From positions 175,688 to 239,687 of the forward strand of contig CAYSSX010000004.1 of assembly GCA_964434115.1 (NCBI GenBank): a stretch of DNA of 64,000 bases. The letters run 5' to 3'. The notes under the pieces were generated by a model, which saw nothing but the letters and a program-made list of their open reading frames with translations, searched no databases and had not been told where the DNA came from. This document shows positions 3,052 through 56,442 of this stretch, piece by piece. Positions within the stretch are counted from its first letter, which is position 1, and each line of letters starts with the position of its first letter. The DNA is from an uncultured bacterium (GTDB taxonomy: Bacteria; Omnitrophota; Omnitrophia; Omnitrophales; Aquincolibacteriaceae). The position numbers and the translations under genes are program-made.

Positions 3052-3612
3052 CTAGTACAATTCGCGGCGTAAGGCGGGATTCATCTTCGCGGGCGACCAG
3101 GGCGGGTCAAAGGTCAAATCGATCTTGCATTCCTTCACACCCGGCACGGTCAGAATCTTGCGTTCAGCGTCTTTCTTGATCCAATCCCCCATGCCGCAGC
3201 CCGGCGCGGTCAAAGTCATCAGGATCTCTACCTTGTATTCCGCGGGGTTTTCAGGCAGTTCATTCACATCGCAGCGGTAAATCAGGCCCAGATCCACGAT
3301 GTTATGCGCGATTTCAGGGTCATAACAGGAGCGGAGCTTGAGCATGACCTGCTCATCCACGGGTTTGTCGGAGTGATTTGCGTGATATTCCTTGGGGATT
3401 TCGCGTCCCAAGGCGTCCGCATCGCGGCCGGAGAGGCTGGCCATGGTGGATTGATGCGTCAAAATCGTGAAAGTGCCGCCCAAAGCCTGGGTAATACGAA
3501 CCTCGGTGCCGGCATAAAGCGTGATGTCCTGACCGCCTGGAACCGTCACGCCAAGGCAATCGCGTTTAAGGGCAATCCATTCTTCGGGTTTAGCGGATGC
3601 AAAGGGATTCAT
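3052..3612 (-). CDS. DUF59 / MIP18-family Fe-S cluster assembly protein (SufT-like) with a ~70 aa N-terminal extension
   Basis: C-terminal half ...YDPEIAHNIVDLGLIY...VEILMTLTAPGCGMGDWI...DLTFDPPWSP matches the DUF59 architecture. Start ATG 3612 overlaps the stop of the upstream ABC ATPase (ATGA). Confidence 0.65.
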   Translation of the reverse strand: MNPFASAKPEEWIALKRDCLGVTVPGGQDITLYAGTEVRITQALGGTFTILTHQSTMASLSGRDADALGREIPKEYHANHSDKPVDEQVMLKLRSCYDPEIAHNIVDLGLIYRCDVNELPENPAEYKVEILMTLTAPGCGMGDWIKKDAERKILTVPGVKECKIDLTFDPPWSPAKMNPALRRELY

Positions 3613-4520
3613 GCGCGCATTTTAGAACGGTACCGGGTACCATTCAAGGCATTTGGTACCTGGTACCGTTCGGCGGGGACTGTTCCAAAAACTTTTTTCA
3701 GGACAGCGGGCGTAAGAACTTTCTTTTTCTCTCCGCAGGCCGCAAACTTTCCGGCTTTGAGGATCAGGCCATGGGTAAAGAAAGGGAGAATGTCTTCCAG
3801 GTGATGGGTCACAAGCAAAAGAGACGGGGCCTTGGGGCTTCGCGCGAGACGGGACAAAAACCCGTAGAGGGAAAACCGGGCGCCCATATCAAGGGCTGAA
3901 AAAGGTTCATCCAGGATCAAGACTTTGGGTTCTGCCATAAGTGCCCGGGCAATGCCTACTTTGAGCTGTTCCCCTGAAGAAAGATTCTCAAACGGCGTGA
4001 ACTCGAAACGGTACTGGGTACCTTTTGGGCCCTGGTACCCGGTACCGTTCAGGCAGCCGAGCTGGCGAAGTTTAGACCGAACCTTGGAACGCAGCGCGGG
4101 GGTAATTTTGTCATGATACGCGGTGCAGCCCTCGGTTCCGGCAGCCACGACCTCAATCACGGTTTCACCTCCCCGGACATGCTTTGGGACCCACGGCGCC
4201 ACATACCCGATCTTCTTACGGAGTTCCGGAAGGTTGGTCTTGCCATACGTCTCTCCCATGACCTGCACGGTTCCACGCGTGGCCCAGAGATAACCCATGA
4301 CCACTTCCAGAAGCGAAGTCTTGCCGGAACCATTGGGACCCAGGATAAACCAATGTTCCTTGGCCTTTACCGTCCAATTCACGCCCTGAAGGACCTTTCT
4401 TCCAGCTCTCGTTAAATAAATGTTTGAGAGGTGAAGGACAGGCAGATTTGTGGGGACAGGTTTAAAAACCTGTCCCCGATCTCCTCGCTCGGCGGTTCTT
4501 TTGCTTACGGATTTTTTCAC
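3609..4520 (-). CDS. ABC transporter ATP-binding protein (ModF-like, orphan ATPase) carrying two in-frame palindromic-repeat insertions
   Basis: Walker A GPNGSGKTS, signature FENLSSGEQ, Walker B VLILDEPFSALD, H-loop LVTHH. The annotated start GTG 4520 lies 58 nt inside the ArfB coding sequence and reads through palindrome 4452..4477, so the true start is probably downstream (~4443..4470). Residues LNGTGYQGPKGTQYRFEF (element 4010..4046) and the C-terminal GTVPAERYQVPNALNGTRY (element 3629..3667) are encoded by GGTACC repeat elements. Confidence 0.75.
   Translation of the reverse strand: MKKSVSKRTAERGDRGQVFKPVPTNLPVLHLSNIYLTRAGRKVLQGVNWTVKAKEHWFILGPNGSGKTSLLEVVMGYLWATRGTVQVMGETYGKTNLPELRKKIGYVAPWVPKHVRGGETVIEVVAAGTEGCTAYHDKITPALRSKVRSKLRQLGCLNGTGYQGPKGTQYRFEFTPFENLSSGEQLKVGIARALMAEPKVLILDEPFSALDMGARFSLYGFLSRLARSPKAPSLLLVTHHLEDILPFFTHGLILKAGKFAACGEKKKVLTPAVLKKVFGTVPAERYQVPNALNGTRYRSKMRA
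3629..3667. repeat. GGTACC-type palindromic repeat element copy (GGTACCGGGTACC-13 nt-GGTACCTGGTACC), inside the 3' end of the ABC ATPase CDS
   Basis: Two 13-mers, each made of two GGTACC hexamers 1 nt apart; same architecture as the other copies listed below. Confidence 0.8.
4010..4046. repeat. GGTACC-type palindromic repeat element copy (GGTACTGGGTACC-11 nt-GGTACCCGGTACC), in-frame inside the ABC ATPase CDS
   Basis: Imperfect 13 bp terminal inverted repeats. Located between the Q-loop region and the LSGGQ signature of the ABC domain and read through in frame. Confidence 0.8.
4452..4477. repeat. Palindrome GGGGACAGG-TTTAAAAA-CCTGTCCCC (core module shared with 10274..10299 and 55781..55809)
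   Basis: 9 bp arms identical to the arms of the 26 bp palindrome at 10274..10299. Sits in the ArfB/ABC ATPase overlap region. Confidence 0.6.
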
Positions 4521-4836
4521 GTTTTAGTTCCGATGCTGTTTTGAAAGGGGGCATACCTAAAGGCATGCCCCCATGATCCCTTTGCCAAATTTCAAATTTT
4601 TCAAGCATCACCCGGCGCGCAAAAAAGCGGTTCGCATGCTGGGAGCGTTCCTTCTGCATTTTCACTTCAAGACCCGAGGGACGGTGCTTTAGATAAACAC
4701 AGGTCGCGGTCTTGTTCACATTCTGACCTCCGCTGCCCCCGGAACGAATAAACTTCTCTTCAAGGTCGGCTTCCAAAAGCCCGGCCTTCTTCATCTGTTC
4801 CGCGAGTTCCTTCACCTTTTCCGGCCCAACACTCAT
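4462..4836 (-). CDS. arfB: Alternative ribosome-rescue factor ArfB (peptidyl-tRNA hydrolase, class I release-factor-like GGQ domain)
   Basis: 124 aa, ...IRSGGSGGQNVNKTATCVYLKH... GGQ motif plus a basic C-terminal tail KREKIRKQKNRRARR. RBS AGGA upstream of ATG 4836. Confidence 0.8.
   Translation of the reverse strand: MSVGPEKVKELAEQMKKAGLLEADLEEKFIRSGGSGGQNVNKTATCVYLKHRPSGLEVKMQKERSQHANRFFARRVMLEKFEIWQRDHGGMPLGMPPFKTASELKREKIRKQKNRRARRSGTGF
4539..4565. other. Hairpin GGGGGCAT-N10-ATGCCCCC inside the 3' end of arfB
   Basis: 8 bp G-rich stem seen directly. It is translated as ...HGGMPLGMPP... in ArfB, so it may be RNA structure within coding sequence rather than a terminator. Confidence 0.3.
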
Positions 4837-4847
4837 TTTTTCCTAAG

Positions 4848-4913
4848 GGTACCGGGTACCCATTGCTGCTTGCGCTGAAATGCTAACCGATACGTTGAAG
4901 GGTACCCAGTACC
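4848..4913. repeat. GGTACC-type palindromic repeat element copy (GGTACCGGGTACC-40 nt-GGTACCCAGTACC) plus a half-site GGGTACCC at 4934..4941
   Basis: Intergenic, immediately upstream of the arfB start. Same terminal 13-mers as the other copies. Confidence 0.75.
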
Positions 4914-5065
4914 CGTGGTGAACATTTCCTTACGGGTACCCATCAACCTGCTCTTTGCGGAGACGAAACCGTCAAGGTTTCGCGAGCACGATGAAGTCAT
5001 TGGGACTTCATCGCCAGCCTCTACCCCTTGTGGGTAAGGGATCTATAAAGTGCCGGGCCAAAAGT

Positions 5066-5131
5066 TTTCCGCCGCGAGTTCCGCAGGAGCGAAGCGACGA
5101 GGACTGTCTGAGCGCCGGAAAATTCTTTGGA
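5066..5131. repeat. Copy 2 of the ~57-60 bp conserved repeat (see 2969..3036)
   Basis: TCCGCCGCGAGTTCCGCAGGAGCGAAGCGACGAGGACTGTCTGAGCGCCGGAAAA. The internal hairpin is kept as GTTCC-GCA-GGAGC (a U-G wobble if read as plus-strand RNA). 82 nt 3' of the ABC-2 permease stop. Confidence 0.6.
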
Positions 5132-5216
5132 CCGGCACCGTTTCCTCCATTTTGTGAGCCGAACGCTCCAGGAAGACAACTATGCGTCTCAGCGATCCAG
5201 CCATTTCCGCCCCCGC

Positions 5217-6023
5217 CTATTCCATTCCGGCACGTACCAACCGCCCCGTCTCCATCGCCCGCCCATAAACCCAATGAAAGAAAACCACGGCCGCGAGAAA
5301 AAACAGCCCATTCAACCCCAGCCCTGTCCAAAAAGACGACGCGCTGAGCGTTTGCCCGGCCAGCACGGCCCGCATGCCTTCAAACACATACGTGCTCGGC
5401 AGACAAAGCGAAATGGCCTGCACCCACGCGGGCATGACAGAAAGCGGGTAAAAAATCGCGGACAACGGCTGCAGCAAAAATGGAATGCCCCAGATCAGGG
5501 CCTCGGCCGCGTAACCCCACCAAAGAAGCATGGACGAAGTGAAGATGCCGAGGATCCAGGCAAACAAAAGCAAATTAAACACCAAGGGAATCAAAGAAAA
5601 CCCAAGGTCTCCGGCGATATTGAATTGATAAAGGAAAAAACACAGCACGGCCAGCACCGCGGTGATGATCAGGGATTTCAGAAAACCGTAAAGAAAGGTC
5701 GCCATCAGCCATTCCCACAAACGGAGAGGTGAAATCAAAATATTCAGAAGGTTGTGATGCCAGATTTCTTCCATCACGGAAATCGTGACCGCCTGCTGAT
5801 TGCGGTAAAGAATGTCCCAGAAAATCATGCCGCCGAGAAACGCGAACACCAGCCCGCCCTTCAGGCCCGGCGCGAAACTGCGCAGATAAATGGTGAGAAA
5901 GCCCCAGACAAAAAGGTCCATCACGGGCCAGAACACCAGTTCCAAAGTGCGCGGCAGGCTGCGGCGGTGAAGATAAAGGTAGCGGGAAAGCATGGCGTGA
6001 ATGCGGGTCAGGGAACCTTTCAT
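5217..6023 (-). CDS. ABC-2 type exporter permease
   Basis: Start MKGSLTRIHAMLSRYLYLHRR... at ATG 6023 overlapping the ATPase stop (ATGA); 6 predicted TM helices typical of ABC-2 permeases. The ORF-track extension to 6170 is upstream read-through. Confidence 0.8.
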   Translation of the reverse strand: MKGSLTRIHAMLSRYLYLHRRSLPRTLELVFWPVMDLFVWGFLTIYLRSFAPGLKGGLVFAFLGGMIFWDILYRNQQAVTISVMEEIWHHNLLNILISPLRLWEWLMATFLYGFLKSLIITAVLAVLCFFLYQFNIAGDLGFSLIPLVFNLLLFAWILGIFTSSMLLWWGYAAEALIWGIPFLLQPLSAIFYPLSVMPAWVQAISLCLPSTYVFEGMRAVLAGQTLSASSFWTGLGLNGLFFLAAVVFFHWVYGRAMETGRLVRAGME

Positions 6024-6775
6024 GAGGATTCTCCCGAAAAAAGATCGCCGGAGCGGACCATTTTGATAAAGGCCTGTTCCAGCGTTTGGGTCGAGCACAA
6101 TTTCTGAACATCCGCGGGCGTGCCTTCCGCAATGCGCCGGCCTTTGTGAATAAAAATCACACGGTGGCAAAGCTCTTCCACTTCATGCATGTTATGCGAT
6201 GTGTAAATTATGCCCATACTGCGTTCGCGCTGGACACGCATAAGAAGCTGGCGGACTTTGTCAGCCATGTCAGGGTCAAGGCTGGCCGTGGGTTCATCCA
6301 GAATCAAAAGCACGGGGTCATTGAGCAGGCTTTTCGCGAGATTCAGCTTCGTTTTCTCGCCCGCGGAAAGCGCGCCGCACAAACGGTTTTTCAGGGCGCT
6401 CATTTCAAAAAGTTCCAGCAGGCCGTGGATTTTCACTTTCGCATTCTTCACCAGGTAAAGGCGCGAAATAATTTCCAGGTTTTCCATCACGGTCAGGTTG
6501 CCCGGAAGATTTCCGTAAGCGGAGGAAAAATTGAGTTTCATGGCCAGCTCGCAGCGCTCGCGAAAAGGGGAACGCCCCAGAAAGGAAACCGTGCCGGACG
6601 TGGGCTTTAAAAGGCCGAGCAGAATATGAAGGGTGGTGGTTTTGCCCGCGCCATTGGGGCCGAGAAGCCCCAGGATTTCCCCGGTGCGGACTTCAAAGGA
6701 GAGGTTCTCCAGCGCCAGGGTCTCGCCATAAAACTTGGTCAGGCCTTCGGCGCGGAGAAGAAGGTCGGAAGCCAT
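6020..6775 (-). CDS. ABC transporter ATP-binding protein (ABC-2/DrrA-like exporter ATPase)
   Basis: Walker A GPNGAGKTT, signature LSAGEKTKL, Walker B LLILDEPTASLD, H-loop IYTSHNM. Confidence 0.9.
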   Translation of the reverse strand: MASDLLLRAEGLTKFYGETLALENLSFEVRTGEILGLLGPNGAGKTTTLHILLGLLKPTSGTVSFLGRSPFRERCELAMKLNFSSAYGNLPGNLTVMENLEIISRLYLVKNAKVKIHGLLELFEMSALKNRLCGALSAGEKTKLNLAKSLLNDPVLLILDEPTASLDPDMADKVRQLLMRVQRERSMGIIYTSHNMHEVEELCHRVIFIHKGRRIAEGTPADVQKLCSTQTLEQAFIKMVRSGDLFSGESS

Positions 6776-6782
6776 GCGGCTC

Positions 6783-7217
6783 TTAGACCTTTTTCATGGT
6801 AACAATTTCTTTCACCGAGGAATACCAGCGGTCATTGTTCAGGCCATTGGCAAAATCATCCAGCTTGGAGCGGAGCTTATCGGAAACCTTGCCGGTGAGG
6901 ATGACAATAATAATTCCGGGCCACATTTTAAGGCCTTTCAAACGTTCAACCAAGGCCTTGAGCTCAGCGGGTGTGGAAAGGTTATGCTGAAATTCAATGG
7001 CCACTTCTTCAGACACCACGAGGTCCGCGAGCACGCCGCCCGCGTCCGCGCGTTTTTTCATGGGGTAGCCGCCCAATTCCTTCTGGAGATAATCAAAGAG
7101 ATGGTCAATGCGGGCGTCTTTGTCCGCTTTCTTCGGCATTTTCCAGGCCGGAAGCGCGCTGCGGATGCGTGATGCGATGTCATAAATTTCGTAACTGCGA
7201 ACCGGTGCAAGTCCCAT
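6783..7217 (-). CDS. Hypothetical protein (144 aa), first gene of the ABC-2 exporter operon
   Basis: ORF on the same strand 8 nt upstream of the ABC ATPase gene; no recognisable motif. Confidence 0.45.
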   Translation of the reverse strand: MGLAPVRSYEIYDIASRIRSALPAWKMPKKADKDARIDHLFDYLQKELGGYPMKKRADAGGVLADLVVSEEVAIEFQHNLSTPAELKALVERLKGLKMWPGIIIVILTGKVSDKLRSKLDDFANGLNNDRWYSSVKEIVTMKKV

Positions 7218-7298
7218 TTAAAGTCTCCTGAATGAGGCGCTCATCCTAGCCGAGAAGCGGATTGAAGTAAAGTGTGATGGCGGAAGCTGAAGGCTTTT

Positions 7299-7311
7299 GG
7301 TACCGGGTACC
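7299..7311. repeat. Solo GGTACCGGGTACC 13-mer (half element)
   Basis: Identical to the terminal repeat of the GGTACC element family. Intergenic between 7217 and 7314. Confidence 0.6.
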
Positions 7312-7313
7312 GT

Positions 7314-7838
7314 TTAAAGCGTTTCTCCGAGAACGGTTTCGCCGCAGGATTCCGAGGCCGTGGCACAGCTGTCCACACGGGGCGTGGCCAAAGTGGTTTT
7401 CACGGCTTCCAGGTTGGGCCTGTCCGCGGGAATAATGCGGGTCACAAAAAAGCTATCAGGATTATCCAGCGGCCGTTTCACCGCCACAAGGGCCGGAACT
7501 TCTTTATAAATCCGCAGGCTTTCCGGCGATTGCTTATAGGCAAAAGAGGTTTCAGGAGGAATAGAACTCTTCAAATATTCGGGTGTTTGAAAAGTCACGC
7601 GGGTCAAGGGAATGGTCACGCCCCGCTGGACCGTGCGCGCAAGAAAGGCGGTGTCCAGCTTCGCGGTAAAGACCGCGTCCGCGGCGCGGGCTTCGGCCAA
7701 AAAGTTTTCACGGTCTTCGGTGCTGGTGTAGGGCATCTCGGCCGCTGACGCGTCCGCCGGGGCCGGATCCGCGGCAAAGGCCGGGGCAAGGGCTGAGAAA
7801 AAGAGGATTGCGATTGAAGAAAATAAAAGGTTTTTCAT
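7314..7838 (-). CDS. Secreted hypothetical protein with signal peptide (MKNLLFSSIAILFFSALAPAFA)
   Basis: RBS GGAGAGG upstream of ATG 7838. The ORF-track extension to 7973 runs through the next gene. Confidence 0.55.
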   Translation of the reverse strand: MKNLLFSSIAILFFSALAPAFAADPAPADASAAEMPYTSTEDRENFLAEARAADAVFTAKLDTAFLARTVQRGVTIPLTRVTFQTPEYLKSSIPPETSFAYKQSPESLRIYKEVPALVAVKRPLDNPDSFFVTRIIPADRPNLEAVKTTLATPRVDSCATASESCGETVLGETL

Positions 7839-7857
7839 AGCCCCTCTCCGTGAATAG

Positions 7858-8076
7858 TTAAATCGACAAAAAATAAATTCCGGCCGCCACAAGACTGACG
7901 CCTCCCGCCACAAAAAAAACCGTTCCCATCTTCCGCGCGGAATCATCAAAAAAATCAGACGTTTCAAACTCACTGAAATGTTTGTGATAGTTCCTGTAAA
8001 AAAGCAGCGGGCCGATCACGAGCGCAGCGCCGATCAGAACCAGAATCCAGCCCAGTATTTTTGAGGATTGCAGCAT
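7858..8076 (-). CDS. Small membrane protein (72 aa, 2 TM)
   Basis: Hydrophobic ORF starting 7 nt downstream of the acetyl-CoA synthetase stop. Confidence 0.4.
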   Translation of the reverse strand: MLQSSKILGWILVLIGAALVIGPLLFYRNYHKHFSEFETSDFFDDSARKMGTVFFVAGGVSLVAAGIYFLSI

Positions 8077-8082
8077 GCGGCC

Positions 8083-10224
8083 TTAAGCCCCCGGGGGAAG
8101 GTCCACAAGGATGCGGTGATCAATCACCGCGCAGCCTTCACCCTTGTTGTAAACAAAAAGCGGATTGATATCGAGTTCCGCGATTTCAGGACATTCCATC
8201 GCGAGCTGGGAAAGCCGCTGAAGGCATTCGGCGATCTTTTCAAGGTCCGCGGGTTTTTCGCCGCGCACGCCTTCCAGAATTTTAAAACTCTTGATGTCAT
8301 GAATCATATGCTGGGCGCTGAGCTGGACAATCGGCGCAACCCGGAACGTCACGTCCTTCATGACTTCCACATACGTTCCGCCAAGCCCGAACATGAGCGT
8401 GGGGCCAAACAACGGGTCTTTGTTAAGGCCCAGAATCACTTCGCGGCCCTTGGGCGCCATTTTCTGGACCGTGACGCCAAGGATGTTCGCGTCCGGATGA
8501 GACTTGGCGATGCGCGTGATCATTTCTTCCGCTGCCTTTTCGACGTCTTCCGGAGTCTTAATATTCAGGGCCACGCCGCCCACATCAATTTTATGCAGGA
8601 TCTGCGGAGAACTGATCTTCACCACCACCGGACAGCCGATTTCACGGGCCGCTTCGCCCGCGGCCTTGGCGTTAGGCGCGAGTTTCATGGGCAGAAGCGG
8701 GAAACCGTAGGCCTCAAGGACTTCCCTGACTTCATAATCATAAAGGGCGCTGCGCTTTTCCTTCACCGCTTTCTCAACCACCTTCCTCGCGCGCGCTTTA
8801 TCCACGGTGTAGGTGATGACTTGGGTGCGCGGCCGGCTCATCCACTCGCCGTACTGAACCATATGCGACAGGGTACGCGCCGCGGATTCGGGGAAGCGGT
8901 AGGCGGGCATATTCCATTTTTCTTCCAGCACTTTCACGCCGCCGGAAACATCCACAATGCCCATAAAACACGCGAGCACGGGCTTCTCGGATTTACTGCT
9001 GATGCGCCCCACGACTTCGGCGATTTCTTCAATGTCGGTCATGGCCTGCGGTGTCAGAATCACAATGACCGCGTCCACCCCCTCTTCTTTCAAAACAATT
9101 TCAAGCGCGGCTTCATAGCGTTCATGCTGGGCGTCGCCGATCACATCAATCGGGTTATTAAAATTCGCGGTGGAGGGAAGGTGTTTGCGGAGTTCCTGCT
9201 TGGTCGGTTCTGAAATTTCGGCCATCTCAAGGCCGTAGCGCACGCAGGCGTCGGTCGTCATAATGCCCGGCCCGCCGGCGTTCGTGACAATGGCGACGCG
9301 GTTTCCCTTGGGAAGTTTGCGGAGCGCGAACGCCTGGGCGTAATCAAAAAGTTCCTGCACGGTTTCCACGCGGAGAATTCCGCCCTGCTCAAAAATCGCG
9401 TTGTAAATTTCATCCGAACCTGCGAGCGCGCCGGTGTGAGACGACGCGGCCTTGGCGCCCTGCAGCGTACGGCCCGCCTTGATCGCGAGAATGGGTTTGC
9501 AGATTTGGGCATCCCCCGTGATCTTGCGCGCGAGCTGGACCATCTCCCGGGGGTGTGAAAGATTTTCCAGGTACATGAGGATGACATCGGTCTCTTCATC
9601 GTTACCGAGGAATTCCAGAAGCTCCAGCTCCGTGACGTCCGCCTTGTTGCCCATGCTGATAAATTTGGAGAACCCGATGTTCGCGCCCTTCGCGTAATCC
9701 AGCACCGACGTGCAGAGCGCTCCGCTCTGAGAAATAAAGGCAATGCGCCCGCGCTTCGGCATGGCGCGCCCAAAAGAAGCGTTCATCGCGATCTTGGGGT
9801 CGGTGTTGATAAGCCCCAGGCAGTTCGGGCCCAGAAGCGGGATGCCGTTTTTCCGGGCAAGCCCGGTGATTTGTTTTTCAATAAGCGCGCCCGCCTCGCC
9901 CACTTCTTTAAAGCCCGCGGAAATAATCACCGCCGCTTTCACGCCCTTGGCGATACACGCGTTGAAAGTTTCAAGGCTCGCTTCCGCGTGAACAATCAAA
10001 ATCGCAAGATCCACGGGATCGGGAATTTCAGAAACCGATTTGTAACAGCGCACGCCCATGATGCTGAGCGCCTTGGGGTTCACAGGGTAAAGCACGCCCT
10101 GGTAACCGCCCGTGATCAGGTTTTTAAAGACCGCGTGCCCGACGGCCTCGGGCCTGCGGGACGCGCCGATCACGGCAATGCTTTGGGGATTGAAAATAAA
10201 ATGAAGCGGATGTTTCGAGGTCAT
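8083..10224 (-). CDS. Acetyl-CoA synthetase, ADP-forming (fused alpha-beta; CoA-binding + succinyl-CoA-synthetase-like + ATP-grasp domains)
   Basis: ...NPQSIAVIGASRRPEAVGHAVFKNL... CoA-binding N-terminus and a C-terminal ATP-grasp domain. Likely start MTSKHPLHF at ATG 10224. The ORF-track N-terminus MVPFTIGTGNMLPVPAVSGTF (to 10317) is encoded by the repeat element 10258..10315 and is probably not real. Confidence 0.85.
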   Translation of the reverse strand: MTSKHPLHFIFNPQSIAVIGASRRPEAVGHAVFKNLITGGYQGVLYPVNPKALSIMGVRCYKSVSEIPDPVDLAILIVHAEASLETFNACIAKGVKAAVIISAGFKEVGEAGALIEKQITGLARKNGIPLLGPNCLGLINTDPKIAMNASFGRAMPKRGRIAFISQSGALCTSVLDYAKGANIGFSKFISMGNKADVTELELLEFLGNDEETDVILMYLENLSHPREMVQLARKITGDAQICKPILAIKAGRTLQGAKAASSHTGALAGSDEIYNAIFEQGGILRVETVQELFDYAQAFALRKLPKGNRVAIVTNAGGPGIMTTDACVRYGLEMAEISEPTKQELRKHLPSTANFNNPIDVIGDAQHERYEAALEIVLKEEGVDAVIVILTPQAMTDIEEIAEVVGRISSKSEKPVLACFMGIVDVSGGVKVLEEKWNMPAYRFPESAARTLSHMVQYGEWMSRPRTQVITYTVDKARARKVVEKAVKEKRSALYDYEVREVLEAYGFPLLPMKLAPNAKAAGEAAREIGCPVVVKISSPQILHKIDVGGVALNIKTPEDVEKAAEEMITRIAKSHPDANILGVTVQKMAPKGREVILGLNKDPLFGPTLMFGLGGTYVEVMKDVTFRVAPIVQLSAQHMIHDIKSFKILEGVRGEKPADLEKIAECLQRLSQLAMECPEIAELDINPLFVYNKGEGCAVIDHRILVDLPPGA

Positions 10225-10257
10225 GTCAAACCGTGTCTTTCCGGGGGGTTCTAAAAA

Positions 10258-10315
10258 GGTACCGCTTACCGCGGGGACAGGTAACATGTTACCTGTCCCT
10301 ATGGTAAACGGTACC
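10258..10315. repeat. GGTACC-type palindromic repeat element, full copy (GGTACCGCTTACC - 26 bp perfect palindrome GGGACAGGTAACATGTTACCTGTCCC - GGTAAACGGTACC)
   Basis: Imperfect 13 bp terminal inverted repeats flank a perfect 26 bp palindrome at 10274..10299. Intergenic between the pirin stop and the Acd start. Confidence 0.8.
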
Positions 10316-10316
10316 A

Positions 10317-11018
10317 TTACGCGAGATCAAAAATTAAAACTTCAGCACCTGCCGCGCCTGCCTTGAAGGAAATTTCCAATTCGTTTTCAAAAGAGGCCCC
10401 GTCTCCCTGTTTCAGATTTTCCCGGGCCAGGTGAATCTCGCCCTTGGCCACCTGCAGCCACGCGTAACGGGAAGGGTTCATCGGGTAACGAAGTTCCACA
10501 TCGGAACCCGGACGGGCCAAAAGAAGCACGGCATCCTGATGGATTTTCATGGACCCTTCGCGCGCGTCCGGGGAAGCCACCACGCAAAACCCGTCTTTTC
10601 CCGCATCAGCGCCAAAGGCCTTTTGCTCATAGCCCGGTGTCAGCCCGCGTTTGTCCGGCATGATCCAGATTTGCAGGAGGTGAAGGGTCTCCGTGTCCGA
10701 AGGGTTGATTTCGCTGTGCGTGATTCCGGACCCGGCCGTCATGCGCTGGGCCTCGCCTTTTTCAATAATGCCTTTTTGGCCCGTACTGTCCTGATGCTGG
10801 ACCCGGCCTTCCAGAATATAAGTGATGATTTCCATGTCGCGGTGGGAATGCGGGTGAAAACCATTGGAGGGCAGGACCTTGTCATCATTGATCACACGCA
10901 GAGAACGGAACCCCATATACCGCGGGTCATGGTAATCCCCGAAGGAAAAGCTGTGATAACTCTCAAGCCAGTCGATCTTGGTGCGGCCCCGTTCATGGCC
11001 GCGGCGAAGATGAATCAT
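10317..11018 (-). CDS. Pirin-family cupin protein (quercetin 2,3-dioxygenase-like)
   Basis: ...FGDYHDPRYMGFRSLRVINDDKV...HPHSHRDMEIITYILEG... pirin N-terminal cupin His motif. Confidence 0.85.
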   Translation of the reverse strand: MIHLRRGHERGRTKIDWLESYHSFSFGDYHDPRYMGFRSLRVINDDKVLPSNGFHPHSHRDMEIITYILEGRVQHQDSTGQKGIIEKGEAQRMTAGSGITHSEINPSDTETLHLLQIWIMPDKRGLTPGYEQKAFGADAGKDGFCVVASPDAREGSMKIHQDAVLLLARPGSDVELRYPMNPSRYAWLQVAKGEIHLARENLKQGDGASFENELEISFKAGAAGAEVLIFDLA

Positions 11019-11067
11019 TTCGCCCTCTCTTTTTTGTCAGCCTTCAATTGCGTGTAACGCCTGTCCC

Positions 11068-11907
11068 TTAGTTGACGGGAGCATTCGCGTTGGAAAGAAT
11101 CCGGATTTCGCGCTGGGGGTACGGCATCACAATGCCGTTCGCGTTGAACGCTTTCAGAACCATCAAGTTAACGGCGTAAAGCGTTTCAAAATACTTCGTT
11201 GTCGGGACCCAGTAGCGGTATTCAATCGTGATCGCCGAATCCGCGAAATTAAGGATGCCGATCGTGGGTTTTTGAGACTTGTCCACGCAGTCAATAGAAT
11301 CGATAATGCCCCGGATCAAGTTGATGGCCTTTTCGGGGTCGCTTTCATAGCTGATGCCGACCGAACATTCGGCGGCACGGCACAATTTGGAGTTATGGAG
11401 GATCTCGCCGACAATGGATTTGTTCGGGATCACAATCCTGACGCCGTCTTCATTCACGAGAATGGTGCTGGCCAGCTTCACCTCTTCCACAACACCGCTG
11501 ACGCCCGCGACCGTGATGGCGTTACCGACCACAAAGGGCCGGGTCAGAATAATCGAGAGACCTGCCCCATAATTGGAGATCGGCCCCTGAATGGCGATCG
11601 TAGCACCGAAGGCAACCGCGCTCAACGCCGCGATAAAAGGCGCGACGGTAATGCCGAAATTCCCCAGCGCGATAATCACCGTGAAACCCAGCACAATGAT
11701 CCGTATCACGCTTGAAAGAAATTTGGAAAGAGTGACATCAAGGTTCTTTTTCTGGAAAAAGGCGAACAGGACGCGGCCCACCCAATTGGAAACCATGAAA
11801 CCCGCGATCAAAATGATGATGGCGCCGATAACCTGAAAACTGTAATTCACGAAAAATTCAATGAGGGTGTTGATAAGGTTCTGAAGCGTTGAAATGTTTT
11901 CCTTCAT
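11068..11907 (-). CDS. mscS: Small-conductance mechanosensitive channel (MscS family)
   Basis: ...APFIAALSAVAFGATIAIQGPISNYGAGLSIILTRPFVVGNAITVAGVSGVVEEVKLASTILVNEDG... Strong RBS GGAGGAG upstream of ATG 11907. Confidence 0.85.
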   Translation of the reverse strand: MKENISTLQNLINTLIEFFVNYSFQVIGAIIILIAGFMVSNWVGRVLFAFFQKKNLDVTLSKFLSSVIRIIVLGFTVIIALGNFGITVAPFIAALSAVAFGATIAIQGPISNYGAGLSIILTRPFVVGNAITVAGVSGVVEEVKLASTILVNEDGVRIVIPNKSIVGEILHNSKLCRAAECSVGISYESDPEKAINLIRGIIDSIDCVDKSQKPTIGILNFADSAITIEYRYWVPTTKYFETLYAVNLMVLKAFNANGIVMPYPQREIRILSNANAPVN

Positions 11908-39912: not shown

Positions 39913-41889
39913 CTAACCCTCGTGCAAAAAGAAAACCGCCGAAAGCGGCGGAAGATCCAGATGCAAAGAATGCGGCTGATGATGCCACGGCACGGATTCC
40001 CCGGGGCGTCCGCCCTGGTTGCCGCTGCCGCTGCCTCCGTAATCATCCGCGTCGCTGTTGAAAATCTCCCGGTACCATCCGTCCCACGGAACCCCCACAC
40101 GGTACCCCAGCCGGGGAACGGGCGTCATGTTAAAAACACACACCACCGGTTTGCTGCGCCCTTTCGCCCAGCGCACAAAACTCACCACGCTGGAATCCCG
40201 GTCGGAAAAATCAATCCACTGAAATCCCTCCGGCGAAAAATCCAGCTCATGAAATGCGGCGAGATCGCGGTGGCAGCGGTTTAAATCGCGGACAAGACGG
40301 CCCCAGGCCTTAAAAATAGGCACGGGCGCAAGATGCCAATCCATGGAATGGCGGCAATTCCACTCCGCCGGCTGGCCGACATCCGCGGTCATAAATAAAA
40401 GCTTTTTTCCCGGGTGCGCGTACATATAAGAAAGGAAGAGCCTCGCGTTGGCCCAGCGCTGCCAGTCATCGCCCGGCATTTTTTCAAGAAGCGATTTTTT
40501 TCCATAAACCACTTCGTCATGCGAAACCGGAAGAATAAAGTTCTCGGTGAACGCGTAGAGCATGGAAAAGGTCAGCATGTCCTGATGAAACCGGCGGTGC
40601 ACGCATTCTTTGGAAAAATAATCCAGCGTGTCATGCATCCAGCCCATGTTCCATTTCATGCTGAAGCCGAGCCCACCCGCGTAGGTCGGCCTTGAAACAC
40701 CGGTCCAGGCGGTGGACTCCTCGGCAATCGTCAAGACTCCGGGATACCGCTCATGCACCACTTCATTGAACCGTTTGAGAAAACTGATCGCCTCAAGGTT
40801 CTCATTGCCGCCGTATTGATTCGGCTGCCACTCTCCCGGCGCGCGGGAATAATCCAGGTAAATCATGGAAGCCACCGCATCCACACGCAGTCCGTCGAGG
40901 TGATACTGATCCAGCCAGAACAGCGCGTTGGACATAAGAAAGTTCCGGACCTCGTTACGTCCGTAATCAAAAACCAGGGTTCCCCACTCCCGGTGCTCGC
41001 CCTTTTTCCAATTGTCATAGGCGTAAATCTGGCGGCCGTCAAAATCCGCGAGGCCGTGAGCGTCTTTTGGAAAATGCGCGGGAACCCAGTCCAGGATCAC
41101 GCCCAGCCCATGACTGTGGCAGGTGTCCACAAAAAACATAAAATCTTCCGGAGATCCAAAACGGCTGGTCGGCGCAAAGTAGCTGATGACCTGATAACCC
41201 CAGGATTCATCCAGCGGATGCTCGCTGATCGGCATCAATTCAAGGTGCGTATAACCCCGCTCAATCGCAAAAGGAATAAGTCTTTCGGCCAGTTCCCGGT
41301 AAGTCAGAAAGTCCTCTCCCTTTTCTCCGGTCCGCATCCAGGAACCCAAATGCACTTCATAAATGGAGACAGGCCCTTCCAAAGGGTTGCGCGCCGCGCG
41401 GGTTTTCATCCAGGCGTCATCGTTCCATTTGAACTTTTGAAGGGCTGCCACCACCGAAGCGGTCCGGGGACGGACTTCGGTCTGAAAGGCATAGGGATCG
41501 GATTTAAAAAAAACATGCCCTTCCGGCGTCTCGACCGCGAACTTATAAAAGGTTCCTTCCACGAGACCGGGAATAAAGCCGTCCCAAAAACCCGACCCGG
41601 GAAGGCGGCGAAGGGGGTTCGCTCCGGACTTCCACAGGTTAAAATCACCCACCACACTGACAGAACGGGCGTTCGGCGCCCAGAGCGAAAAATAAGTTCC
41701 CGGTTTTTTTTCCGTCACGCAGACATGCGCGCCCAGTTTCCGGTAACTATCGAAATGGTTTCCCTCGCCCAGCAAATGGAGGTCAAAACCCGTCAGCCTT
41801 GTTTCTTCCAAAAGAGGAAGGGTTTTGGAGACAGCCGCCGCTTTCGGGCGCCTTACGGCACGTGCTGGGGGACGCGTTTTTCTTTTCAC
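39913..41889 (-). CDS. glgB: 1,4-alpha-glucan branching enzyme (GH13_9)
   Basis: ...GFDLHLLGEGNHFDSYRKLGAH..., ...LGVILDWVPAHFPKD..., ...YDYGRNEVRNFL...; the GGTACC hexamers at 40069..40110 are coding coincidences (GY/WY codons). Confidence 0.9.
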   Translation of the reverse strand: MKRKTRPPARAVRRPKAAAVSKTLPLLEETRLTGFDLHLLGEGNHFDSYRKLGAHVCVTEKKPGTYFSLWAPNARSVSVVGDFNLWKSGANPLRRLPGSGFWDGFIPGLVEGTFYKFAVETPEGHVFFKSDPYAFQTEVRPRTASVVAALQKFKWNDDAWMKTRAARNPLEGPVSIYEVHLGSWMRTGEKGEDFLTYRELAERLIPFAIERGYTHLELMPISEHPLDESWGYQVISYFAPTSRFGSPEDFMFFVDTCHSHGLGVILDWVPAHFPKDAHGLADFDGRQIYAYDNWKKGEHREWGTLVFDYGRNEVRNFLMSNALFWLDQYHLDGLRVDAVASMIYLDYSRAPGEWQPNQYGGNENLEAISFLKRFNEVVHERYPGVLTIAEESTAWTGVSRPTYAGGLGFSMKWNMGWMHDTLDYFSKECVHRRFHQDMLTFSMLYAFTENFILPVSHDEVVYGKKSLLEKMPGDDWQRWANARLFLSYMYAHPGKKLLFMTADVGQPAEWNCRHSMDWHLAPVPIFKAWGRLVRDLNRCHRDLAAFHELDFSPEGFQWIDFSDRDSSVVSFVRWAKGRSKPVVCVFNMTPVPRLGYRVGVPWDGWYREIFNSDADDYGGSGSGNQGGRPGESVPWHHQPHSLHLDLPPLSAVFFLHEG

Positions 41890-54495: not shown

Positions 54496-55752
54496 CTAGG
54501 TATTTTTGACCCGCCGGGCGGCTCCGGCCGCGGCCGTGACACCGCTCGACCAGGCCCATTGAAAGTTAAACCCCCCGATACGGCCGTCCACATCCAGGAT
54601 CTCCCCGGCAAAGAAAAGGCCCGGCTGCAGGCGTGATTCCATGGTGGCGTCATCGACTTCTGTCAAATCCACGCCCCCGGCCGTCACTTCAGCCTTGGCA
54701 TAGCCGGCGGACCCGCTGACCGAAAGAGAAGCCCGGAGAATTCCCTTCACCAGCGCTTCGCGTTCCTCCCGGGACACCTGATTCATAATCCGGTTCTCCG
54801 GAAGCCCTGCCTTTTTAATCAGCATGACCGCCAGTTTTTCCGGAAGTTCCAGGGCCAGAAAATTTTTCACCATCATTTTCGGATTTTCTGAGAGGGCCCC
54901 GGCCAGCGCCTTGCGTAAATCATCTTCATGAAGCGCGGGCAGAAAATTCGCGGTCAGAACCGCGGACGCATCGTTAAGACGGATCCAATGCCTGCTGATA
55001 TTCAAAACCACAGGGCCGCTGTAGCCCGTATGTGTAAAAAGAAACGAGCCTTCATACTCGACGTTTTTTTCTTTTCCCGCGTAAAGCGTGAGGCGCACCG
55101 GTAAGGTCACGCCGGACAGGCTTTTCCAATCCGCATCAGCGGTCAAAAGCGGGGTCAGCGAAGGCGATGTCGGAATAAGCGAATGCCCAAAGGCCTGTGC
55201 CAGCGCGTAACCCGATCCATCAGAACCGCTGGTAGGAAAAGACAACCCTCCGGTGCAAAGCACCACGGTTTTCGCCTGACACACTGCCCCGGCCTGGGCT
55301 TTCACGTTAAAAACAGAACCTTCCCGCTGAACACTCTCCACTTTAAAACCGGTCACAAGATTGACACCTATACGGGCCGCTTCGCGCGTCAGTGCTTCAA
55401 GCACCGTACGGCCTGAATGCGTGGCCGGAAAATACTTTCCGCCCGGTTCCAGCACCAGCTCCACCCCCAATTTTTGGAAAAACTCCACGGCCTTAGGCGC
55501 GGGAAAAGCCCTCAGCACATTCCTCACCTGCCTGATCTGCATGCTTTGAAAATCCCGCTCGCTGACCTTTTCATTCGTCACATTACAGCGGGTGCCGCCG
55601 GACATGAGAATTTTGGCGCCGATCTTTTCCCTTCCATCCAGAAGGAGCACGCTCAACCCCTGGGTTCGGGCCGAAATCGCGGTCATAAGGCCGGCCGCGC
55701 CGGCGCCTACCACCGCCATATCCGCCACTTCAGCCAGATTGTCTTGCATCAT
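54496..55752 (-). CDS. NAD(P)/FAD-dependent oxidoreductase, HI0933/BaiN-like family
   Basis: ...VVGAGAAGLMTAISARTQGLSVLLLDGREKIGAKILMSGGTRCNVTN...; likely start ATG 55752 (RBS GAAAGG). The ORF-track N-terminus MSPRYPVPLRKA (to 55788) is encoded by the repeat element. Confidence 0.85.
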   Translation of the reverse strand: MMQDNLAEVADMAVVGAGAAGLMTAISARTQGLSVLLLDGREKIGAKILMSGGTRCNVTNEKVSERDFQSMQIRQVRNVLRAFPAPKAVEFFQKLGVELVLEPGGKYFPATHSGRTVLEALTREAARIGVNLVTGFKVESVQREGSVFNVKAQAGAVCQAKTVVLCTGGLSFPTSGSDGSGYALAQAFGHSLIPTSPSLTPLLTADADWKSLSGVTLPVRLTLYAGKEKNVEYEGSFLFTHTGYSGPVVLNISRHWIRLNDASAVLTANFLPALHEDDLRKALAGALSENPKMMVKNFLALELPEKLAVMLIKKAGLPENRIMNQVSREEREALVKGILRASLSVSGSAGYAKAEVTAGGVDLTEVDDATMESRLQPGLFFAGEILDVDGRIGGFNFQWAWSSGVTAAAGAARRVKNT

Positions 55753-55765
55753 TGCCTTTCTTAAA

Positions 55766-55827
55766 GGTACCGGGTACCTAGGGGACACGTAACTTTGTTA
55801 CATTTCCCCAAGCAGGTACCCGGTACC
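55766..55827. repeat. GGTACC-type palindromic repeat element, full copy (GGTACCGGGTACC - GGGGACACGTAAC..GTTACATTTCCCC - GGTACCCGGTACC)
   Basis: Perfect 13 bp terminal inverted repeats; the central degenerate palindrome 55781..55809 is related to 10274..10299. Confidence 0.8.
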
Positions 55828-56442
55828 ATTTTATTTTCATTTTTACACACTCTTTACTTCAGTCCCGGGCCGGACCGTGCCGAAACATTAGATGCAACAA
55901 AGGAGGACATTATCGTCGAATTCGATTGGATTCTCCATCTCATGACCTTTCTTAATTGCCCTGAGAAAAAACCGCATGACCCGCGCGCCGAAGAGCAAGA
56001 GCCTTTGGCAGCCTGAAGCGGGCCGGCCGGAGCAGTCCCGTCCGGCAGCCGGCAGCGGCAAATCCCCTCACGAATCCCCATACCCTTTTTTCGAACGAGC
56101 GTCTTTTAACAGCGGGGGAATTCCCTTGTCTCATAAAAGGAGTTTCTCTGTCAACCTCCGGAGGCATCTCTATGACGAGCCTTAAACGTTTTTTCATGAT
56201 GCGTTCCCTGCTCAAAGTCAAAGCCCCGTCGAATAAATACCGCCGGGACAAAAGCTGTTAAAACAGAAGTAACCGCTCTTTAATCACCCTGTCAGGTTAA
56301 ACCCGCAGCATTTATTTTAGGCTGTCCCGGGTGGTGAATTTTATACCCTTCCCCGCGTCTTAAAGCTGGAGCCTTCCCCAAGTTTCAATTATAATGCGCC
56401 TTCTTATAAATGATGATTCGTTTTTTACCTGGAGCGCTTCCG

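Follow-up and report, generated by a model that had tools for sequence, protein, structure and literature searches.

A perfect 26-bp palindrome between pirin and acd as a probable module of a REP- and RPE-like repeat family in an Omnitrophota-like bacterium

Introduction

In the 64-kb stretch of DNA analyzed here (the window), a perfect 26-bp palindrome, GGGACAGGTAACATGTTACCTGTCCC, lies at positions 10274-10299 between the pirin gene and acd, which are co-directional and 92 nt apart. Two readings of it were offered in the original prediction, the central module of a composite element and the operator of a dimeric regulator, and the locus raises the question which of them fits the copies of the palindrome in the window, in relatives and in metagenomes. 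According to a homologue search, the nearest named homologues of Acd belong to Candidatus Omnitrophica. The genes adjoining the elements (hairpins H1 to H3 and GGTACC elements, see below) are:

3609..4520, minus strand: ABC transporter ATPase with three elements (H1 and two GGTACC elements), from domain search and homologue alignment
4462..4836, minus strand: arfB-like RF-1 domain gene, the last 5 codons and stop of which are encoded by H1
8083..10224, minus strand: acd, ADP-forming acetate-CoA ligase, downstream of the 10255-10318 composite
10317..11018, minus strand: pirin, its stop codon overlapping the outer arm of the composite
54496..55752, minus strand: HI0933-like oxidoreductase, from domain and ORF assignment

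The palindrome and its copies in the window

Re-reading of the sequence bore out that the palindrome at 10274-10299 (H2) is perfect and sits within an element at 10258..10315. It is the center of a larger, imperfect palindrome of 64 bp (10255-10318), the arms of which (10255-10286 and 10287-10318) are 84% complementary and which is bounded by GGTACC at 10258 and 10310. The second copy of the arms, claimed for positions 4452..4477 in the arfB/ABC ATPase overlap, is indeed read there as GGGGACAGGTTTAAAAACCTGTCCCC (H1), and the degenerate version at 55781..55809 as GGGGACACGTAACTTTGTTACATTTCCCC (H3), with one and two mismatches in its arms; H3 is enclosed by an GGTACCGGGTACC...GGTACCCGGTACC element (55763-55830). 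The palindromes measure 26-29 bp and their stems open with GGG(G)/CCC(C), that is, they are short stem-loops with a G-C-rich foot. The hairpins and the composites around them, given without strand, are:

4452..4477: H1 hairpin module GGGGACAGGTTTAAAAACCTGTCCCC without arms, a 24-nt in-frame insert with the arfB TAA in its loop; fold -21.2 kcal/mol
10274..10299: H2 hairpin module, perfect 26-bp palindrome GGGACAGGTAACATGTTACCTGTCCC; the orthologous site of the relative L125 reads GGGGACAGGTCACTTGTGCCCTGTCCCC, with one compensatory change
10255..10318: composite with outer arms AAAGGTACCGCTTACC / GGTAAACGGTACCATT around H2, from inverted-repeat search, GGTACC spacing and RNA fold
55781..55809: H3 hairpin module, degenerate, GGGGACACGTAAC-TTT-GTTACATTTCCCC, from arm search and shuffles
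55763..55830: composite AAAGGTACCGGGTACC ... GGTACCCGGTACCATT around H3; fold -45.3 kcal/mol, z -8.4

Arms paired at a distance of up to 24 nt, with at most one mismatch each, occur twice in the window and in none of 200 shuffles; if two mismatches per arm are allowed, three pairs are found, against a shuffle mean of 0.5. The 64 kb thus hold only three hairpin copies, about zero being expected by chance. Single half-sites are not enriched (17 matches to GGGGACAGG with at most one mismatch in the window, 15.7 expected), and for this reason the remnant that had been suspected near 11043 is not counted as a copy; the sequence concerned, GTAACGCCTGTCCC, actually stands at 11054-11067 and is a lone half-site indistinguishable from chance.

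Two of the copies do lie beside gene starts, as had been pointed out, namely the ATG of acd at 10224 and that of the HI0933-like gene at 55752. The composite at 10255-10318 starts with the pirin stop codon, is separated by 31 nt from the acd ATG downstream and folds on the minus strand with -42.6 kcal/mol (z -7.5). The composite at 55763-55830 is located in a divergent spacer, with 11 nt between its end and the downstream ATG of the HI0933-like gene. The public Acd model (P0001, 734 amino acids) begins at ATG 10285-10287, which is the exact center of the palindrome; the N-termini of homologues favor ATG 10224. The listed ORF of the HI0933-like gene likewise opens inside the 55763-55830 element (GTG 55788). 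Between this gene and a divergent MotA/ExbB gene extend about 580 bp (55831-56409), unusually long for a compact genome, in which neither the 99-amino-acid ORF at 55952-56251 nor any other ORF matches Pfam.

An operator, through which a dimeric transcription factor would co-regulate acd, the HI0933-like oxidoreductase gene and others, would account for the perfect dyad and for two copies 43-62 nt upstream of start codons, but hardly for a best-preserved second copy within two overlapping coding sequences or for the lack of enrichment of half-sites; moreover, a promoter scan of about 9900-11300 gives no sigma-70-like promoter around the acd copy on the strand of the genes.

A second module with GGTACC arms

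The hexamer GGTACC occurs 24 times in the window, against 4.5 expected, and the arrangement GGTACC-N20-50-GGTACC nine times, against 0.00 expected. The elements so formed are palindromes with arms (AAC)GGTACCNGGTACC / GGTACCNGGTACC(GTT) and variable cores, the core of both window composites being the GGGGACAGG hairpin. Further elements of this kind, again without strand, are:

3625..3671: GGTACC-armed element with an 11-nt loop, encoding the C-terminal extension of the ABC ATPase (ERYQVPNALNGTRYRS...)
4007..4049: GGTACC-armed element with an 11-nt loop and no hairpin core, adding 39 nt (13 codons, GTGYQGPKGTQYR) in frame to the ABC ATPase gene
4847..4947: compound GGTACC elements upstream of arfB, consisting of a unit at 4847-4914 and a second GGGTACCC hairpin at 4894-4947
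7299..7311: solitary GGTACCGGGTACC arm that follows the stop of the minus-strand ORF 7314-7973 at a distance of 2 nt

The 13-codon insert directly precedes the LSSGEQ signature of the ATPase, the ABC_tran domain of which is stretched to 164 amino acids versus a 137-position profile. The C-terminal extension comprises about 17 residues and extends into the beginning of the following gene. In the unit at 4847-4914, a core of 38 nt is conserved in the relatives L243 and L242. Contigs of relatives break off about 100 nt after the stop codon of the gene that corresponds in position to ORF 7314-7973. The GGTACC pair at 40071-40106 has no palindromic context and was rejected as an element. Seven of the about eight to nine window elements fall within 7 kb (3625, 4007, 4452, 4847, 4914, 7299, 10255), and outside the cluster at 3600-10320 there is one clear window element (55763).

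The two kinds of sequence occur both apart and together. The hairpin occurs without arms at 4452-4477, in L125 and in L243; GGTACC arms surround other cores at 3625-3671, 4007-4049, 4847-4914 and at 12427-12493 of L125; arms and hairpin stand together in two window copies, in the Omnitrophota contig L029 and on at least nine metagenome contigs. Since it also occurs alone at the first three of these places, the hairpin is, judged from its distribution, a separable module and one of several possible cores of GGTACC-armed elements. Its reading as the central module of a composite element is supported by the recurrence of the same core between GGTACC(N)GGTAC arms at the places where both are found.

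Gain and loss among relatives

In both L125 and L127, Acd is 86% identical to that of the window and the MscS-pirin-acd synteny is the same, and the pirin-acd spacer occurs in three states: with the composite in the window, with the hairpin alone in L125 and, in L127, with no such hairpin. In L125 and L121 the hairpin GGGGACAGGTCACTTGTGCCCTGTCCCC follows the pirin stop codon and has no GGTACC arms; the change in L125 is from A-T to C-G in the inner stem. Symmetric changes that keep the dyad in one relative could be expected of an operator; the absence of the acd copy from the syntenic L127 could not.

At the N-terminus of the ABC ATPase, H1 forms an 8-codon insert (DRGQVFKPVPT), which corresponds to a 24-nt indel in the DNA alignment. 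Among close homologues it is also present in P0124 (73% identity) and missing from P0122 (84% identity), P0123 and P0125. The hairpin of P0124 has C-G in place of T-A at an inner pair and a G·T pair at one stem position, and in both hairpin-bearing genomes, that of the window and that of P0124, the arfB stop codon is found in the hairpin loop. The true start of the ABC ATPase is GTG 4520, because relatives keep the N-terminus MKKS.SKR. The overlap with arfB then measures 59 nt (4462-4520, in different frames); as the relatives L242 and L243, hairpin-free at this site, also have an overlap of about 50 nt, it is probably ancestral, and H1 would have landed within it.

Among the aligned homologues, the 13-codon GGTACC insert (4007-4049) is restricted to the window and P0122. 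Conversely, a 20-nt spacer of the window corresponds to a GGTACC element in L125, and L243 carries two GGGGACAGG hairpins at a site where the window has none; further hairpin copies are located on the contigs of the close relatives L125, L243 and L244. Comparison of filled with empty sites, and of metagenomic copies, gave no consistent direct repeat that could be a target-site duplication, divergence limiting the resolution. As far as these alignments go, presence and absence among relatives agree with dispensable elements subject to gain and loss, not with a conserved operator.

The loop of the 4007-4049 insert (window 4018-4033) matches positions 2161-2171 of L243 at 7 of 11 positions as reverse complement and at 0 of 11 directly, which suggests that the 11-nt loop, or possibly the whole element, was flipped between the two genomes. 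Downstream of the ABC ATPase of L242 (1960-2100), variant hairpins with the related arms GGGGGCAGGTCTTTAGCCCTGCCCCC and GGGGACATACCTTCAGGTGTGTCCCC are present; arm sequence would therefore covary within the family.

The composite on other contigs and inside genes

A metagenome scan for GGTACC near the hairpin returned 80 loci. The architecture shared by at least nine metagenome contigs and by the Omnitrophota contig L029 is AACGGTACCNGGTAC, 4-6 nt, GGGACAGGTTC, loop, GAACCTGTCCC, 4-5 nt, GTACCNGGTACCGTT; the composite thus consists of GGTACCNGGTAC arms and a GGGACAGGT hairpin core and comprises about 66 bp, or 22 codons. Long ORFs pass through its copies. The 22-codon peptide TVPGTAGTGSQNLSRNVPGT is encoded in frame inside LeuRS (L319), a Kdo transferase (L314) and a heavy-metal efflux adaptor (L029), it forms the C-terminus of QueC (L291), and a variant of it is found in a GatA-type amidase (L253). 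Lnt (L323) and, at its C-terminus, a LipA-like radical-SAM enzyme (L267) use other frames of the composite. In an alignment, the LeuRS insert lies opposite a gap in the Thermus enzyme 1h3n. The conserved arms are stop-free in every frame, stops being confined to loops and spacers, and on account of the latter the statement that the whole element is free of stops in all six frames was rejected.

Judged from these reading frames, the presence of one element in many unrelated genes amounts to protein-coding behavior like that of the Rickettsia palindromic elements (RPE), which were reportedly described by Ogata et al. in 2000 and 2002 and by Claverie and Ogata in 2003. An operator would scarcely be placed in frame, and in both orientations, in LeuRS, GatA, Lnt and other genes. 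With such copies in housekeeping genes, a copy in the coding region of the window, the absence from L127 and no promoter near the acd copy, the operator for a dimeric regulator is largely refuted by the sequence comparisons and retains next to no probability.

The stems of the composite are well kept. Across nine copies, 94.4% of the stem cells are paired and six pairs are changed on both sides; the covariation score is reached by none of 500 shuffles. The central arm position, for example, is split evenly between A-U and G-C, with four copies each. The hairpin is likewise kept with a compensatory change at two orthologous sites, for which selection for RNA structure could alternatively be responsible. 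The element would then be mainly a selected RNA element, acting as 3' stabilizer, partial terminator or translation modulator between co-transcribed genes, and would owe its repetition to recruitment for this function. This would agree with the very stable folds (-21 to -45 kcal/mol, z -4.6 to -8.4), with a composite (10255-10318) that lies between the pirin stop, at which it starts, and a UUUUU stretch directly behind it on the sense strand, with the compensatory changes, including a G·U-compatible sense-strand change in L244, and with the location of REPs close to the 3' ends of upstream ORFs, for which a role as RNA has been proposed (PMC3733652). Many copies, however, lie inside ORFs, where termination would be harmful, and the corresponding operon junction of L127 has no hairpin. 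A U-tract is lacking from the stand-alone hairpins, at which the terminator scan found nothing; in the region 9900-11300, the promoter and terminator scan gave nothing on the gene strand at the element, the UUUUU-followed composite included. There is no consistent sense-strand G·U bias, the mismatches of the elements E1 and E2 being A·C on the sense strand, and Rfam gave no match at the gathering threshold over the whole window. Quasipalindrome template-switch repair is an established mutational mechanism that also yields apparent compensatory changes. RNA function as the main role is thus unlikely; a secondary effect on the 3' end of the pirin mRNA or on acd expression is possible.

Common origin of the copies

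Perfect hairpins with 9-bp arms of arbitrary sequence are common. In a control on viral contigs, the real arms found 36 loci and two scrambled versions of them 57 and 20, and raw counts of such hairpins are therefore uninformative; the at least 120 loci from the scan of genome contigs for the arms were rejected as proof of a pan-phylum family. The evidence used is accordingly the extended 28-mer family (see below), the genomes with multiple copies and the shared composite architecture. The scrambled control GGAGGCAGT...ACTGCCTCC had many matches on viral contigs (L165-L221) with a constant length of 30-32 nt, apparently a conserved hairpin of one environmental virus group.

Many single arm matches, some with terminator-like A/T-run flanks, are probably unrelated to the palindrome, and one might go further and hold that none of the copies was transposed, that they are independent hairpins (e.g., terminators) or palindromes from local template-switching or gene conversion, and that the shared arms are coincidental. 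This is quite improbable in view of three copies in 64 kb that share arms of 9-10 nt, where about none is expected, of the same outer stem, internal loop, inner stem and loop on at least nine contigs, and of multicopy families in some genomes (JAUYEC01). Likewise, the composites of L314 and L319 differ at only 2 of about 64 positions, although they are located on different contigs in host genes that are unrelated.

Relation to REPs and RAYT transposases

The 28-mer GTAGGGACAGGTCGCGACCTGTCCCTAC is a "double-foot" REP with the same hairpin stem and GTAG/CTAC feet. It accounts for 35 of the 128 genome matches listed and for 6 of the 36 viral matches, in many phyla. At five loci it is found inside, and often also beside, Y1_Tnp/RAYT-like genes, within which it always lies between the HuH motif and the Tyr helix, in two reading frames. 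RAYT-like (subclass 2.4-type) genes with an in-frame GGGACAGGT...ACCTGTCCC are those of L050, L075, L087, L306 and L024, and the palindrome reads GTGRDLSL or RDRSRPVPT in them; the corresponding peptide is present in 77 of the best 120 members of the RAYT-like family, a figure biased by the query words. The Omnitrophota MAG JAUYEC01 has at least ten copies of GTAGGGACAGGTTTYAAACCTGTCCCTAC, which by its sequence appears intermediate between the 28-mer and H1 of the window. In the Bacteroidota contig L026 (1950-2200), three double-foot REP 28-mers are arranged in tandem with a period of 88 bp.

TnpA_REP proteins of subclass 2.4 (group 4 of Bertels) are characterized by the motifs NH[IFV]H, WQ and YIxNNP and are associated with "double-foot" REPs (5' GT[AG]G and 3' C[TC]AC); REPs in frame within tnpA_REP have already been published (PMC6006769). 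REPs inside genes and in frame have been described too, with the largest number in Opitutus terrae, a PVC bacterium, as have stop codons provided by REP ends (PMC3733652). The palindrome string itself gave nothing relevant in a literature search and is absent from the supplements of PMC3733652 and from PMC12306157; in the searchable literature, no report of the palindrome or composite family or of Omnitrophota REPs was found.

Agreement of the window hairpins with the GT[AG]G foot is partial. On the plus strand H1 fits (GTGG|GGACAGG); H2 has GCGG (plus strand) and ATAG (minus strand), three of four positions each; the foot is absent from H3 and from L125, and most composite copies have GTTAC, GGCC, AGAA and similar sequences instead. 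The linkage to RAYT is confined to other phyla and to a relative of the hairpin with GTAG feet, and a tblastn search of the 64-kb window returned no RAYT-like gene.

Discussion

The palindrome is probably a module of a REP/RPE-like family of selfish palindromic repeats in an Omnitrophota-like bacterium. Observed directly are the repetition of the elements, their modularity, their presence or absence at orthologous positions, copies read in frame within genes, and the preservation of stem pairing. The GGGGACAGGT...ACCTGTCCCC palindrome would be a short REP-type hairpin, and this GGGACAGG-type hairpin one of two separable modules, the second being the GGTACC(N)GGTACC arm pair. The hairpin either stands alone or is nested centrally in a GGTACC-armed element, giving a long hairpin of 64-68 bp. 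Between close relatives, copies come and go; they would land at gene ends, where they sometimes supply the stop codon, and inside genes, where those with a length divisible by three and an open frame would persist and be translated, as predicted, into short loops rich in Gly, Thr and Pro. Transcribed hairpins (-21 to -45 kcal/mol) may incidentally stabilize or attenuate the neighboring mRNA.

With respect to mobilization, we infer spread via a single-stranded DNA hairpin that would be recognized in trans by a RAYT-type transposase (HuH/Y1, subclass 2.4-like), and nesting may result from the exposed hairpin loop being a permissive landing site. Three points count against the RAYT step, namely the window without a RAYT gene, the imperfect GT[AG]G foot and the GGTACC arms, for which we know of no cognate enzyme. 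It is a tentative idea, rather doubtful at present, that the GGTACC composite represents an undescribed, recently active family of protein-coding palindromes which captured a RAYT-type REP hairpin as mobilization handle for a subclass 2.4-like Y1 transposase. If true, such a capture would explain near-identical copies in essential genes, e.g., LeuRS, and imply that elements land preferentially in hairpin loops, as in nesting.

With the REPs of the GTAG superfamily (subclass 2.4) the window elements share a stem-loop of 20-40 bp with a G-C foot of at least three pairs (PMC3733652; PMC6006769), multiple copies with a common consensus, presence that varies between relatives, a position adjoining ORF 3' ends, where the stop codon is sometimes supplied, and in-frame intragenic copies. 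The window hairpin has the identical stem, GGGACAGGT/ACCTGTCCC, as the double-foot REP that occurs within and next to subclass 2.4-like RAYT genes in the loci examined. Unlike these REPs, the elements lack a perfect GT[AG]G foot in two of three window copies and in most composite copies, have loops of TTTAAAA or AACATGTT in the window in place of CGCG, are unaccompanied by a RAYT gene in the 64 kb, and are often nested inside a second, unrelated palindromic module.

RPE are likewise palindromic repeats that stand in frame in many unrelated genes, essential ones included, add short peptides to the products and have no known mobilizing enzyme; the inserts seen here against homologues lacking them comprise 8 and 13 codons (ABC ATPase) and 22 codons (LeuRS and others). 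RPE-1 measures about 100-150 bp and is restricted to Rickettsia, while the present elements are unrelated in sequence, are 24-66 bp long, modular and nested, and reside in free-living or uncultured Omnitrophota-like bacteria.

REPINs or BIMEs, i.e., REP doublets forming a long hairpin (PMC3116915, PMC3337134), resemble the composite in their long imperfect hairpin of inverted copies and in covariation that preserves pairing. A REPIN, however, is made of a single kind of REP in two inverted copies with a spacer between them, while the composite has one REP-like hairpin between arms that belong to a different repeat (GGTACCNGGTACC). MITEs (e.g., Correia/NEMIS, ERIC, Nezha) are also small and non-autonomous, have terminal inverted repeats and are sometimes co-transcribed or translated; they differ in that the window-type elements are much shorter than typical MITEs, have no consistent target-site duplication and could not be assigned to a parent IS with GGTACC-type ends.

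These repeats matter foremost for annotation, as they create false N-terminal extensions, such as the public Acd start at the palindrome-center ATG, add peptide inserts to real proteins and supply stop codons. No new regulatory system is indicated. In-frame "protein-coding palindromes", such as those of Rickettsia and of some REP families, are extended to Omnitrophota-like bacteria, and a tractable case is provided of two palindromic modules that nest, with a stem common to the REPs of a widespread RAYT subclass. The repeats also appear to break assemblies of related genomes.

Apart from these elements, contig ends of relatives (L125 13020-13121; L244 1-100 and 1260-1427) carry runs of GAAACAnGAAAC with the palindrome CCCCCGCAGGCGGGGGAGG, which look like another, assembly-breaking repeat family.
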